A stretch of DNA of 57,783 nt, the filler included, from Circinaria calcarea (taxonomy: Eukaryota), in the NCBI GenBank assembly GCA_051942165.1. It is 5 parts of 5 records of this genome, joined end to end, with 100 filler letters (N's around TTAATTAATTAA, not from the genome) between each part and the next. Parts side by side here need not be neighbours in the genome. Positions count along the whole stretch, not along the records: positions 23,179 to 34,656 come from JAVECS010000680.1; 4 more parts are not named here. One strand, given 5' to 3'. The translations under genes and the position numbers were made by a program. The notes under the pieces were generated by a model, which was not told the origin of the DNA, ran no database searches, and was given only the letters and a program-made list of their open reading frames with translations. Shown here piece after piece: positions 11,498 to 46,321 of this stretch (the stretch's first letter is position 1; the number at the start of each line of letters is the position of its first letter).

Positions 11498-11597
11498 NNN
11501 NNNNNNNNNNNNNNNNNNNNNNNNNNNNNNNNNNNNNNNNNTTAATTAATTAANNNNNNNNNNNNNNNNNNNNNNNNNNNNNNNNNNNNNNNNNNNN
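11498..11597. other. Artificial contig-joining linker
   Basis: 44 N + TTAATTAATTAA (stops in six frames) + 44 N. Confidence 0.98.
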
Positions 11598-23078: not shown

Positions 23079-23178
23079 NNNNNNNNNNNNNNNNNNNNNN
23101 NNNNNNNNNNNNNNNNNNNNNNTTAATTAATTAANNNNNNNNNNNNNNNNNNNNNNNNNNNNNNNNNNNNNNNNNNNN
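23079..23178. other. Artificial contig-joining linker
   Basis: 44 N + TTAATTAATTAA + 44 N. Confidence 0.98.
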
Positions 23179-24993
23179 GAAGACGATGAACTCGAAAGCC
23201 AGCACGAGCCCGTGGATGCTCACCCAATCTCGAGGTTGATGGCTGCAGCCAATGTGAAATGGCGGGAGTACGAAGGCAGACGCTCTTGGACATTCCAAGA
23301 GACTGTAAAAAAATATCGAAGAAAATATGGAAGGCATCCACCGCCCGGTTTCAAAGAATGGTATCTTTATGCGCGACATCGCAATGTTTACAACATCGAT
23401 GACTTTGAACAAATCATGGATGATATTCGGCCTTTCTGGGGAGTAGAACCGTCCGTTATACGTTCCCTAGCGGCGCACATGTGGGAGAACGAGGTGGATG
23501 GCATCGCAGGCATACATATCAGGAACCATAATGTTACGAAGCAAAATAACCCGTCTTGGAGGTCGGAAACTATGGTAACTCTGATTGAGAAATTTGTCGA
23601 ATACCTACCAGATATGGATATCGCCATGAACAGACTGGACCAACCTCGGATTGTGGTGCCATGGGAAGATATGCAGGATCTTCTTGCAAAGGAGGCAAAG
23701 AGACGGCAAATGTTGCCCGAAGCCAACAACGAGTTCACCACCGCCATGCAAGGTTTTCTCGACCTTGACGCAGAAAAGGATGACGGCCCTAAAGAGGACT
23801 CTGGTTGGTTTCCTGCGCATGGTCAGCAGTACATGGACATTGCGAGCTCCGCATGTCCCCCTGGGACCCGGGCTCGGGACCATGAGGTCGATTTGGTAAA
23901 CTCGGAAGCTTTGTACAAGGATCGATATGGCGGACTTGTAATGAATTTCAATCTCTCGACAGACCTCTGTACGATTGGTCCTGAGATACAGGATAAGCAC
24001 GGGTTTCTCTTCTCTGCCTCCTCCGTGATAGCAACCAAACGATTGGTACCCGTCTTTGGGGAGTGTAAAGTCAACGTCAACAGCGACATACTCTTCCCGG
24101 CGAGCATGTACTGGAAACATGACGAACGCTATGAATATGACGGCAGCAATGATGTGGACTGGGAAAACAAAACAGATATGGTGATGTGGCGAGGAGTGAC
24201 TTCGGGCGGAGTGTCTGTTCCAGAGAGTTGGCGTCGCATGCATCGCCAGCGGCTTGTACTGCTGCTTAACAGCACGGAACAGGAAGGTCAAGAGCTTAGA
24301 ATCCTGATGGAACAACCCGAGGCAAAGGGGGAATACGAAAACTTTAGACAATTTAAGCCTTCGCGATTTGCTGAAGAACATACTGATGTCGGTTTCACGG
24401 AAGCTACTGCCTGTTCTCCCAACTGTACCTCTTTGTATGAGAACGTCTGGACGTATAAGCCGCAGGTCAACCTAACGGAGCAATTCAAATCCAAGTACTT
24501 GGTTGACGTTGACGGTATGTCATTCTCTGGCCGATGGCGAGCTTTCTTGCAGAGCAAATCACTAGGCATCAAAGCTACGATATTCAGGGAGTGGCACGAC
24601 TCCAGGCTTTTCGAATGGCGCCACTTTGTTCCGATGGACAATCGTTTTGACGATATATATACTTTACTTACTTATTTCATTGGTATCGGGAAAGATGGGG
24701 AAAGATTACGTCCCGGCGAGGCGTACGTGGCTCGGCACGATCGAGAAGCAAAACGAATAGCACTGCAGGGGAGAGAGTGGGCGAATAAGGTTCTCCGTCG
24801 AGACGACATTGAGGTATGTCCAAACTACGAGCCTTTTGGCCTTGGGAGCCAGATGCTGACATGGCTACAGATCTACATGTTTCGCTTACTCCTCGAGTAT
24901 GCTCGGGTTATTGACGACAATCGGGATCGAATCGGCTACTCTGGTGATGGAAGCGAGCTGGACAAGGACGACAGTAGCCGCCATACCGTTTGA
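23179..24993 (+). CDS. GT90 / CAP10-like glycosyltransferase (Cxt1-type), 5'-truncated
   Basis: HPI..L, YRRKYGRHPPPGFKEW, LPDMDIAMN..DQPR, WRGVTSGG, KYLVDVDGMSFSGR, KATIFREWHDSRL..WRHFVP, YMFRLLLEYAR. A 57-nt in-frame intron lies at 24814-24870. Confidence 0.9.
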   Translation, partial: EDDELESQHEPVDAHPISRLMAAANVKWREYEGRRSWTFQETVKKYRRKYGRHPPPGFKEWYLYARHRNVYNIDDFEQIMDDIRPFWGVEPSVIRSLAAHMWENEVDGIAGIHIRNHNVTKQNNPSWRSETMVTLIEKFVEYLPDMDIAMNRLDQPRIVVPWEDMQDLLAKEAKRRQMLPEANNEFTTAMQGFLDLDAEKDDGPKEDSGWFPAHGQQYMDIASSACPPGTRARDHEVDLVNSEALYKDRYGGLVMNFNLSTDLCTIGPEIQDKHGFLFSASSVIATKRLVPVFGECKVNVNSDILFPASMYWKHDERYEYDGSNDVDWENKTDMVMWRGVTSGGVSVPESWRRMHRQRLVLLLNSTEQEGQELRILMEQPEAKGEYENFRQFKPSRFAEEHTDVGFTEATACSPNCTSLYENVWTYKPQVNLTEQFKSKYLVDVDGMSFSGRWRAFLQSKSLGIKATIFREWHDSRLFEWRHFVPMDNRFDDIYTLLTYFIGIGKDGERLRPGEAYVARHDREAKRIALQGREWANKVLRRDDIEVCPNYEPFGLGSQMLTWLQIYMFRLLLEYARVIDDNRDRIGYSGDGSELDKDDSSRHTV

Positions 24994-25922: not shown

Positions 25923-28900
25923 ATGACGAGACCTCAGATCATAAGAGCAGGTCAGTAGAAGCTTGAGGTCGTGCGGATACTCAACCGGGGAAGAAAGCAC
26001 AGGATGTTGGGAGCTACATGGAAGAATGCATGCTAAACACGCTCGAAACCTAGATACGATTGATCTTCAGAATCAGGATGCTCCGTCCGCTAAAGATCAT
26101 ACGCGTCAGCCGACACATCCAGGCCCCTTGGGCGATGGGCCTCCCGCACCCCATCAGGCGGTTGCCATGATGAATGCCGGCCATGAACCAATTGAACACT
26201 ACGCAAGGAGTCCTCGCGCCTCACAAGATCTCTCAGGTAAAGAGCTGCAACTTTTGCATGAGAGCCCTAGCTCGAACGACAGCGAAGGTGATGGTGGGCT
26301 ACATCGGGATGGGTTCGGTTTTCACCGCAACGGAGACTCGTCAGGAAATGGGGAGGATGGAGACACGGGAGAGGCGGAAGAAGGAGACAGCATGGATGAC
26401 GATATGATGGATAAAATATCCAGCTCTCCATCCATTGACGATGGTGGGTACTCATTGCCTCCGACCTGGCCTTCCAGGGAGGATTCTCTTTCGTCCAACT
26501 CCACCTCGATAGCCAAAGCACATTCTCTCCTTCTTACTTCAGAAACCCTCTCCTCGTCACCGTTTCTTTCGACGCCTACACACTTTCCCCTTTCCTTGAA
26601 TCAGCAAGAGCCGGATCAATGGTCGTCAGAGGTTCATCATCATCGGGGAGGTAGGTATCCCGGTCATGACTTAGACAGTCATCAAATCGAAGACGATTCC
26701 GACGACGATGCCGAAGATGAGGACCGTGACGAATTGGCCCCCATCCCAAGTGATCACAGGATAGCTTATTTCAGCGAACAGCCCCAGAAGATGCAAGATC
26801 TGGACAAGGAAGAGTTCGAGTCTGATGGTCTGCAACATTTGCTTCTTCCGGTAGATGATCCATTGTTGGACAACAGTTTTGACGACGTACCCTTATCCGA
26901 ATCATCCTCTGAGCTGTCTCTGGCACTCTCCGAGTCTTCCTGGAACGATAAACATGCGGAAAAGGCAGATGATGAAACCGAGGACGTTTCCTTAATGAAT
27001 GATTCCCGCTTTGTCGATTCCGGATGGGGTGGAGAGTGCTTACGCGAAACAGAAGATATCGATTTCGAGTTTGTGTATGCGCTGCATACGTTCATAGCAA
27101 CTGTCGAAGGACAAGCAAATGCTACCAAAGGTGATACAATGGTCCTACTAGATGACAGTAATAGCTATTGGTGGCTAGTCCGGGTCGTAAAGGACAGCAG
27201 CATTGGTCAGTCTCACCTGAAATTCCAAGCATTATACGCCTAATATCATTCCGAATAAGGTTACCTCCCCGCGGAGCATATCGAAACTCCAACCGAGCGT
27301 CTTGCCAGACTGAACAAACACCGGAATATTGATGTCAGACCATCGACCCCAGAATACAAACAAAGCAAACCAGGCTGACAAGTCCTCAGTTGTCACAAAC
27401 CATGCTCGGGGACAATCCTGAGAAATCCAAGAACCCACTGAAGAAGGCCATGCGGCGGCGTAATGCTAAGACAGTACAGTTTGCTGCACCCACATATCAT
27501 GATGCGCCTGATGTAGATTACTCTACGGACGAGGAGGATGAAGAAGATGATGGTCTGTACCCTGAGACAAGTGCATCGACACAGGCAGGTCCTCAGGAGG
27601 CCGATGATGAACATGATCAAGCCGCAATCATAGAGCCCCTCAAAACTGGACCGCAAATAAAAGAATATGATGGCCTTGATGACATGCAAGCGGACCCAAG
27701 GTCTCAACAAGGCAGTAGCGAATCAGAATTAACAATGGAAAAACCACGGACTAGTGAAGAGATCTTTGATCGTCAAGGTAAGATACTGTGGAAGATTAAT
27801 GAAATGATGCCTGACCTCGACCTTAGTTGACAATGGTTTATCCGCAAAAATAAGAAATGGAGTGGTCCGGAACACCGACTCCTTTTTCAAAGACGATACC
27901 GTGGAGACCCGGAAAATCAATCTGACCCCGAGCTTACTACGCGACGACTCAAGTTCTTCAACGTTGACGCCGGTTTCAAGTGATCAAAAAGAGGTATATA
28001 TTGTATTTCTTTTGGTGGTATATCACATATTGACAACCCATGACAGACAAAGAGTAGAGGAGGGAGTTTTGACACCCTTGAGAAAGTTGCGTCACCCCCA
28101 GAGAGAGTAAAAGACGAGAAGCGCAAGGAGAAGAAGTCTGGCATTCTCAGTGGATTATTCAAACGGAAGGACAGAAAAGGCAAAGCACAGAATGAAGATG
28201 AGGACTCGGAATGGCTGTCTAAGGAAATCTCCGGGCAATCTCCCCAATCCAAGATGTCTTCCGAGTCTTTGTCTCAGGATGGAGGTTCGCTTCAATCGAG
28301 TCCTCAACAACGCCAGCAGCCGCAGAGACAAATTAGCAAATTGCAGAAAACTCCACCGGTGAAAATGGCACCCTTGAACAAACGACCAGCTTCGCGCGAG
28401 GGACAGAGCCCCGAAAAGTCCAAACCTTTGGGACTGTCGATGGCAGCAGCCTCGCAGTCAAACGAACCGTCTTCAGCTCCTATGGAGCCAGACTCCGTCA
28501 AACTTGTCGATCCCAGCCAAGTCACTAGGGGTACTCCCCCAGCTTTACGGGTTGTATCCCCAGAACAGCCACATGAGCTTAGTAGTCCACCCTTATCTCC
28601 TATGGATTCGAAGAGAGGAGATATGTTTTCGCCGATAAGGGATGTCCTTCGACCTTCACCTTCGAACTCGGAACCCAAACCTGAAAAAGTCAAGAGGGCA
28701 AGGGAGCGGGTGGCAATAGACGAGTTTGATTCATCGCCAGATGTTGAAGATACTTGCGACCCAATGCCGCCGCCAGAGGAAAACTATCCATCTCGCATTC
28801 AGGAACAATCCGTCAAGGAGCGACTGTCAGAATCGCCTATTCAGGTATCCCCTCTAGGATCAACAAACCACATAAACGCTCCAGCTCTGGTCGGCGACAC

Positions 28901-29264
28901 ATCATCACAGGAAGAGCCGTCCATCTCACCAGTGTCCCCGTCGTCAACACCAGAGCTGGTTGAAGCGCCGCGCGAGGAGAACGTCCGAGACGAGGAGACT
29001 CCAGTATCGACAGTTCACCCATCGATCAGCGCTCCTACTTGGAGCGATGCAAGCTTGCGCTCTTATCTCGAGGATGACACCGACATCCGGGATTTGCTAG
29101 TAGTTGTCCACGACAAGTCAGATATCAAAGCGGCAGGACCGGATCACCACATCAATGCTAATCTTTGCAAGGAGGAGAACCGTAGGCTGGGCGAAATGTC
29201 TACTCGCTTGGATGGCTTACTGCATGACTGGCTTGCCGGGAAGTCGAAAAACGTCGCAGGCTGA
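25923..29264 (+). CDS. tea4: SH3-domain cell-end marker / PP1-targeting protein, Tea4/TeaC/Bud14 family, multi-exon
   Basis: Exon 1 MTRPQIIRA (25923-25950), intron to 26053, then DTIDLQ. SH3 domain VYALHTFIATVEGQ...LLDDSNSYWWLV..GYLPAEHIETPTERLARLN is followed by an RVxF-type motif KTVQF. C-terminal WSDASLRSYL. Confidence 0.88.
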
Positions 29265-34656: not shown

Positions 34657-34756
34657 NNNNNNNNNNNNNNNNNNNNNNNNNNNNNNNNNNNNNNNNNNNN
34701 TTAATTAATTAANNNNNNNNNNNNNNNNNNNNNNNNNNNNNNNNNNNNNNNNNNNN
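34657..34756. other. Artificial contig-joining linker
   Basis: 44 N + TTAATTAATTAA + 44 N. Confidence 0.98.
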
Positions 34757-46221: not shown

Positions 46222-46321
46222 NNNNNNNNNNNNNNNNNNNNNNNNNNNNNNNNNNNNNNNNNNNNTTAATTAATTAANNNNNNNNNNNNNNNNNNNNNNN
46301 NNNNNNNNNNNNNNNNNNNNN
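46222..46321. other. Artificial contig-joining linker
   Basis: 44 N + TTAATTAATTAA + 44 N. Confidence 0.98.

Follow-up and report, generated by a model that had tools for sequence, protein, structure and literature searches.

A Candidate Exitron Beside the SH3 Domain of a Tea4/TeaC/Bud14-Type Gene in Circinaria calcarea and Its Conservation in Related Fungi

A Candidate Exitron Inside a Coding Exon

We identified in Circinaria calcarea a stretch of 609 nucleotides (nt) inside a coding exon of a Tea4/TeaC/Bud14-type gene (positions 26444-27052 of the window, which is the whole stretch of 57,783 nt of DNA that was analyzed; all gene features given here are on the plus strand), which we consider, with a probability of about 0.77, to be a deeply conserved exitron. 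According to the accessible text of the study that defined the term in Arabidopsis and human, the term refers to an internal segment of a protein-coding exon that undergoes alternative splicing and carries canonical splice signals (Marquez et al., 2015; PMC4484396). The C. calcarea stretch lies inside a coding exon, has canonical signals, is free of stop codons with a length that is a multiple of three, and shows exon-like coding evolution. Its splice signals are contained in codons: the 5′ site as G|GT GGG T (Gly-Gly-Tyr), the branch site as TGC TTA C (Cys-Leu-Arg) and the 3′ site as ACA G|AA (Thr-Glu). Use of these signals by the spliceosome would give a protein of 805 amino acids (aa), in which a DKISSSPSIDD box is fused through a single Glu to the SH3 domain. 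If the signals are left unused, the mRNA would stay in frame and encode a 1008-aa protein with a Ser- and acid-rich module of 203 residues, which would contain at least four conserved short motifs and end in the invariant RF.DSGWGGECL just ahead of the SH3 domain. Most likely, the gene gives rise to two Tea4 scaffolds, a long one with this 203-residue module beside the SH3 domain and a short one that lacks it.

Nothing interrupts the open reading frame (ORF) from 25945 to 27243, and exon 2 (26054-27205) encloses the stretch; the exon-2 frame from 26026 to 27207 comprises 394 residues and is free of stops. An earlier reading of this DNA, made from the sequence alone (the sequence-only reading), had proposed a candidate exitron with GT at 26444-26445, GCTTAC at 27038-27043 and ACAG ending at 27052, and these sites were confirmed, as were the 203 codons without a stop upon translation. 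The 5′ splice site G|GTGGGT spans 26443-26449 within the codons GGT GGG T(AC), and the branch-site-like TGCTTAC (27037-27043; codons TGC TTA C..) has its A at 27042, 10 nt upstream of the final intron base. The 3′ splice site ACAG| is located at 27049-27052, with AG at 27051-27052 and a following codon that begins with G. The constitutive 5′ part of exon 2 (26054-26443) ends in ...DDMMDKISSSPSIDD plus a G, the candidate exitron has phase 1, and the remainder of the exon (27053-27205) encodes the N-terminal portion of the SH3 domain. Splicing joins G (26443) to AA (27053-27054) into the Glu codon GAA and yields the product SSSPSIDD-E-DIDFEFVYALH (peptide across the junction ...SSSPSIDDEDIDFEF...), and retention adds 203 residues ending in ...FVDSGWGGECLRET. 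The insert is acidic and rich in Ser as had been described, the 204 codons that touch the stretch encoding 27 D, 21 E and 33 S with a net charge of -36. Both versions of the coding sequence (long isoform 1008 aa, short isoform 805 aa) are open with a single terminal stop.

The argument that a neutral intron of this length would rarely lack stops, on which the sequence-only reading had relied, fails when a single sequence is considered. Exon 26054-27205 contains 49 GT and 80 AG dinucleotides, which combine into 510 in-frame GT..AG pairs spanning 40 nt or more. All 510 leave the frame open, so that being stop-free within the ORF is uninformative. Five pairs, including 26444-27052, passed a filter for GTNNGT, YAG and CTNAY; with the strict branch motif CTRAY two pairs passed and the 26444-27052 pair failed. 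Before the comparison with relatives, an ordinary exon looked most likely, and the number of pairs, the five with comparable motifs and the failing branch motif are also what would favor a coincidental GT..AG pair that has no biological meaning and merely happens to lie in a long exon. A separate observation concerns the same 5′ site, which could be paired with an in-frame 3′ site after TCCTTCTTACTTCAG (26444-26542, 99 nt), whose pyrimidine tract is better than that of the conserved one.

Splice Signals Are Fixed at Synonymous Positions

Orthologue DNA was obtained as metagenome-contig loci, the best 80 of 177 candidate stretches that encode relatives of the protein. Four loci (L057, L071, L072, and L076) lacked the 5′ anchor motif and were excluded from all counts, and codons were counted in 59 distinct locus sequences together with C. 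calcarea, giving 60 sequences. The Gly codon that holds the 5′ GT was GGT in 60/60 sequences. The codon after it was GGG in all 40 cases in which it encodes Gly and GCG in all nine cases in which it encodes Ala; intron position +5 was G in 53 and position +6 was T in 58 of the 60 sequences. At the branch site, Cys was encoded by TGC and Leu by TTA in every sequence and the next codon always started with C, so that TGCTTAC was present throughout. The codon preceding the 3′ site was NYA in 60/60 sequences (ACA 34, ATA 15, TCA 4, GTA 3, GCA 3, TTA 1), which with the following G gives YAG. A Glu between the branch site and the AG was encoded by GAA in 49 sequences and by GAG in four, a preference that avoids a competing AG.

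Neighboring invariant Gly, Leu, Thr, and Ile residues have freely varying codons, and another invariant Leu is encoded by six different codons. A scan of exon 2 in the 60 sequences identified 62 columns with an invariant, degenerate amino acid, in which the commonest codon had a median share of 0.54. A single codon was used in exactly three of these columns, at 26443, 27037, and 27040. Since the only codon-invariant columns hold the 5′ GT and the branch motif of 26444-27052, this pair stands out beyond chance. This coincidence, together with transcripts of relatives that use the exact junction (see below), argues against a meaningless chance pair, and we regard that explanation as already refuted and give it hardly any credence. 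The same fixation bears on a second alternative, in which the stretch is a constitutive exon in C. calcarea and the ancestral splice signals were inherited and are now unused. Unused signals should decay by synonymous change, yet they are kept in all 60 distinct sequences, C. calcarea included.

The Stretch Evolves as Coding Sequence

The sequence-only reading had proposed to check orthologues for splice sites, length and frame, and this check came out in its favor: besides the signals kept in 60/60 sequences, the length of the stretch was a multiple of three in 77/77 complete sequences (76 loci and C. calcarea; 420-882 nt) and the frame was open in 75/77. The ratio of nonsynonymous to synonymous substitution rates (dN/dS; Nei-Gojobori method, NG86) for the inner part of the stretch, computed without the codons that hold the splice signals, was 0.20-0.77 and mostly 0.2-0.4 (49 pairs listed), and it was 0.06-0.27 in the upstream exon where computable; the protein-guided alignment may bias these ratios slightly downward. 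Searches among proteins pointed in the same direction. In a search for longer proteins 106 of the 120 listed matches covered at least 94% of the exon-2 protein, and when proteins close in length were searched, all 120 listed matches covered at least 96% of residues 120-394.

Alignments of 21 and 26 sequences revealed four conserved blocks within the stretch: SSSPF.STP.HFPL, HH..G.Y, LLP.DDPLLDNSFDD, and RF.DSGWGGECL. The first (SSSPFLSTPTHFPL, 26551-26592) has near-invariant S177, S178, F180, P184, H186, and P188. The second (HHHRGGRY, 26635-26658) has invariant H204, H205, and G209 and a near-invariant Y211, and the third (LLLPVDDPLLDNSFDD, 26839-26886) has invariant L273, P275, D278, L280, L281, D282, N283, S284, and D286. 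The fourth is a box at the 3′ end of the candidate exitron (RFVDSGWGGECLRE, 27007-27048) in which R328, D331, G333, W334, G335, G336, E337, C338, and L339 are invariant, and which ends eight residues ahead of the FEFVYALH strand, the start of the Pfam SH3 match in orthologues. Because the Gly and Glu codons of this box vary synonymously, the selection on it acts on the peptide. The peptide blocks are kept in named orthologues which we take to belong to the Lecanoromycetes, Leotiomycetes, Dothideomycetes, Eurotiomycetes (Chaetothyriales, Verrucariales), Sordariomycetes, and Geoglossum-type fungi. Judged by these comparisons, stretch 26444-27052 is under coding selection, which is an indirect sign that the retained form is translated.

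This evidence has to be set against a third alternative, namely that the stretch is an ordinary intron with a functionless open frame, whose retained transcripts are unprocessed or detained in the nucleus and never translated. Many annotations do treat it as an intron, and for Pyricularia oryzae the accessible text of a study of TEA4 describes a retained form that is less abundant and has a premature stop (PMC8475275). A non-coding sequence of 420-882 nt would, however, not remain a multiple of three in all 77 sequences and open in 75 of them, and neither dN/dS ratios of 0.2-0.8 nor peptide blocks with synonymously varying codons, such as G-W-G-G-E, are expected of it. Moreover, the mRNA assembled in one lichen-fungus sample retains the stretch and is otherwise fully processed (see below). 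We consider an ordinary intron very improbable.

Spliced and Retained Transcripts in Relatives

A search among cluster-representative proteins identified models with the exact junction, for example Bcbud14 of Botrytis cinerea B05.10 (785 aa) and a Thelocarpon model. In a junction-based search 117 of 119 further proteins were compact with SSSPSI[DE]D-E-DIDFEF, none was retained and two fell outside the pattern, and the compact junction which the sequence-only reading had given for TeaC orthologues proved to be real. Compact models include those of Penicillium, Aspergillus, Talaromyces, Blastomyces, Fusarium, Alternaria, and Monilinia. Among the 117 were 29 unnamed ORFs on transcript-like contigs of 2.0-5.7 kb. 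No splicing was applied when the unnamed ORFs were called (P0122, for instance, is an exon-2 ORF that continues into intron 2), and the contig of a compact unnamed ORF therefore lacks the stretch. As the intron-1 junction was spanned by 26/29 and the intron-2 junction by 29/29 of these ORFs, they represent spliced transcripts.

Two compact ORFs of a Letharia-like organism (P0479 and P0524, 909 aa) match P0161 with 100% identity on either flank. P0161 is an exon-2 ORF with an open stretch and is encoded on a genomic contig of 112 kb; relative to it, the compact ORFs lack exactly residues 131-332. The retained form was found on contigs of 3.7-3.9 kb (P0006 and P0525; 1105 and 1113 aa), from which every other intron was removed, and P0006 is 100% identical to the genomic exon ORF P0527. 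The organisms of P0479/P0524 and of P0006/P0525 are both Letharia-like and are 83-84% identical to P0003. Over its N-terminal part the compact transcript ORF P0402 shows 96% identity to a retained Gyalolechia model, and its overall identity to Gyalolechia proteins is 86-88%. The compact P0500-P0503 share 98% overall identity with locus L059, where the stretch is open over 690 nt. Spliced and retained mature mRNAs thus both occur in Lecanoromycete relatives.

One further candidate for a retained mRNA, the 1076-aa P0108 (Joint Genome Institute, JGI), was dropped. It starts with MCLDTIDLQ and reads through the in-frame intron 2, and is therefore a genomic ORF; it runs through intron 2 and all later C. 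calcarea intron positions. In the Alternaria-like locus L059 (approximately L059:3902-3950), to which P0108 corresponds, the SH3-internal intron 2 is itself 48 nt long, in frame and open (RHSQLNLQLFLTQATG).

The gene has been annotated inconsistently within species or genera (protein pairs P0352/P0081, P0453/P0358, P0482/P0362, and P0431/P0375), for example at 785 vs. 946-975 aa in Botrytis cinerea and at 835 vs. 1084 aa in Macrophomina phaseolina. Both compact and retained models also exist in Verticillium longisporum, and closely related Fusarium species differ, with 809 vs. 960 aa. The annotations of about 800 and about 1000 aa arise because pipelines differ in calling the stretch an intron, and an exitron accounts for both.

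RNA from a Close Relative and the Weight of the Evidence

One metatranscriptome study matched, with a share of 0.14 of the sampled words. Its contigs are 90-97% like the C. calcarea sequence and hence come from a relative, in which introns 1, 2, 4, and 5 are spliced. One RNA contig of 291 nt (record 2, 26224-26512) reads straight across 26443/26444. Because intron 3 was found unspliced, unprocessed RNA or DNA is present in the metatranscriptome.

A number of findings weigh against an exitron. No 26443>27053 joint was present in the RNA contigs of this relative, the only RNA that matched, although contigs drop rare forms and some parts had no cover or low depth. The 5′ site GTGGGT is unlike those of the other introns of the gene (GTCAGT twice, GTCAGA, GTAAGA, and GTATAT), and 609 nt is 6-12 times the length of those introns (49-103 nt). 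Each of the two lichen-fungus relatives showed one form only, and both forms within one organism are documented only in P. oryzae, with a premature stop on retention. In two Hortaea-like loci, L038 and L055, the stretch contains a single in-frame TAG. No retained form was found near the Eurotiales/Onygenales among the proteins compared (best identity about 50%), and the coding capacity may be absent in these orders. The named gene models, finally, are predictions.

The RNA contigs that cross the 5′ site without a reported joint, the weak 5′ site and the atypical length are also the points that favor a constitutive exon with unused ancestral signals in C. calcarea. Against it stand, next to the fixation of the signals described above, the spliced mRNAs in two other Lecanoromycete lineages (P0479, Letharia-like; P0402, Gyalolechia-like), and a minor spliced form could have escaped the contigs. 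We therefore consider a constitutive exon unlikely and favor the exitron. The sampled lineages keep the splice signals and, with two exceptions, an open and selected frame, so both outcomes must matter over evolutionary time. The sequence-only reading had proposed two isoforms of a polarity scaffold; this proposal is supported by the spliced and retained mRNAs of Lecanoromycete relatives, whereas the close relative of C. calcarea displayed read-through only. By extension, C. calcarea would make both forms and translate both of them.

The TAG of the two Hortaea-like loci is shared and is located at a homologous place (L038:1071-1073 and L055:2088-2090; ALD*E), and conserved motifs continue in frame beyond it. 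It may point to stop-codon read-through, to a long form that is cut short or to a small additional intron.

Gene Identity and Comparison With Known Systems

The closest named relatives of the C. calcarea protein are from lichen-forming Lecanoromycetes, and proteins of Xylographa and Letharia are about 59% identical. Source names of the orthologues are "Tip elongation aberrant protein Tea4", "Bcbud14" and "protein phosphatase regulator", and Tea4 is the source name in matches from Botrytis, Lachnellula, Fusarium, Erysiphe, Talaromyces, and Verticillium. These names agree with the Tea4/TeaC identity proposed earlier, and judged by them the gene is a Tea4/TeaC/Bud14-type SH3 gene. The SH3_1 domain (Pfam PF00018) scored 19 bits in the exon-2 fragment, under the cut-off of 22.9, the domain being cut by intron 2. 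Four full-length orthologues, to which the C. calcarea sequence is near-identical across the domain, scored 23.0-23.8 bits and are over the cut-off. Downstream of the SH3 domain lies KTVQF (27468-27482; residue 445 of the long and 242 of the short isoform), which is kept as K.V.F in the orthologue alignment and which we take to be a candidate RVxF-type docking motif for protein phosphatase 1 (PP1). The order of an SH3 domain followed by an RVxF-type motif is shared with Tea4 of fission yeast, TeaC of Aspergillus nidulans and Bud14 of budding yeast. Binding of PP1 and formin is ascribed to Tea4/TeaC/Bud14 proteins. Roles in polarity, septation and branching are described for proteins of this type in the accessible text of PMC10881174.

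The module of the long form may alter the binding or control of this SH3/PP1-docking scaffold. A sequence search of solved structures gave a single match, a generic one of the SH3 domain to Src (E = 0.008). AlphaFold2 models had a mean predicted local distance difference test (pLDDT) score of 42.5 for P0002 (1000 aa, 70 sequences) and 48.8 for P0260 (654 aa, 111 sequences), and in both the SH3 domain itself reached only about 43-59, too poor to read disorder of the insert or packing of the GWGGECL box on the SH3 domain.

Functional, protein-changing alternative splicing is thought to be rare in fungi. Our literature search found no study of fungal exitrons and no paper describing two isoforms or a 200-residue module in Tea4/TeaC/Bud14, and a preprint on isoforms in Fusarium graminearum mentions neither tea4 nor exitrons. 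The stretch resembles the exitrons which the accessible text of Marquez et al. (2015; PMC4484396) describes, in that intron and exon features are combined and a length that is a multiple of three leads to an internally deleted protein. It differs from them in its occurrence in filamentous and lichen-forming ascomycetes, its conservation across several classes and the fixation of its signals at synonymous positions. For plant exitrons, regulation by tissue and stress and translation of both forms are shown in that text, whereas the Tea4 case is known from sequence and transcripts.

A likely counterpart has been described in P. oryzae. According to the accessible text of PMC8475275, the normal transcript of TEA4 (MGG_06439) encodes 812 aa, and a less abundant one keeps the second intron of 579 bp, so that its protein is truncated to 263 aa. 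The two cases probably concern the same gene family and have in common a second intron of similar length (579 bp, a multiple of three) and the occurrence of spliced and retained transcripts. The position of the P. oryzae intron is presumably homologous to 26444-27052. The retained transcript is called aberrant there, in contrast to the stretch in C. calcarea and most sampled lineages, which is open and under coding selection.

The Tea4 case is conserved across several fungal classes, and its splice signals can be read straight from codon usage. For research on cell polarity it predicts a second Tea4/TeaC isoform, with conserved motifs that adjoin the domain that recruits PP1. A further-reaching interpretation, which we put forward only tentatively, is an ancient regulated switch across most filamentous ascomycete classes. 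Keeping or removing a 200-residue module with several docking motifs next to the SH3 domain would then let one gene supply two Tea4 scaffolds that differ in their partners or in PP1/formin control, chosen by growth state (for example hyphal tip vs. spore, appressorium, or symbiotic). RF.DSGWGGECL would be doubly constrained, as an SH3-modulating peptide and as an RNA branch site that determines whether this peptide is produced.

Gene Model and Neighboring Sequence

The Tea4/TeaC/Bud14-type gene extends from 25923 to 29264 (ATG to stop) in a model based on RNA joints and orthologue alignments. Intron 1 (25951-26053, 103 nt, GTCAGT..TAG; RNA contig joint 25948>26052, cut +2) separates MTRPQIIRA from DTIDLQ, in agreement with the N-termini of orthologues. 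Intron 2 (27206-27259, 54 nt; RNA joint 27204>27259, cut +1) lies within the SH3 domain. Intron 3 (27334-27389, 56 nt, GTCAGA..CAG) was placed with the help of orthologue proteins and gives the reading KHRNID|LSQTMLGD. RNA joints support intron 4 (27778-27826, 49 nt) and intron 5 (27994-28046, 53 nt).

Intron 3 is kept in RNA contig record 3 (27324-27583, no joint), whereas the same run shows splicing of introns 1, 2, 4, and 5. It may represent unprocessed RNA, carry-over of DNA or a second retention event.

Upstream of the gene lies an ORF of 620 aa (23131-24993, plus strand), probably a glycosyltransferase-90-type gene. The fused orthologue models P0029, P0030, and P0037 have PF05686 ahead of the Tea4 part, suggesting that this gene order is conserved in Lecanoromycetes. 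Four pairs of 44-base N runs (11498-11597, 23079-23178, 34657-34756, and 46222-46321), about 11.5 kb apart, look like masking rather than biology, and one of these pairs falls inside the 5′ part of the upstream ORF.

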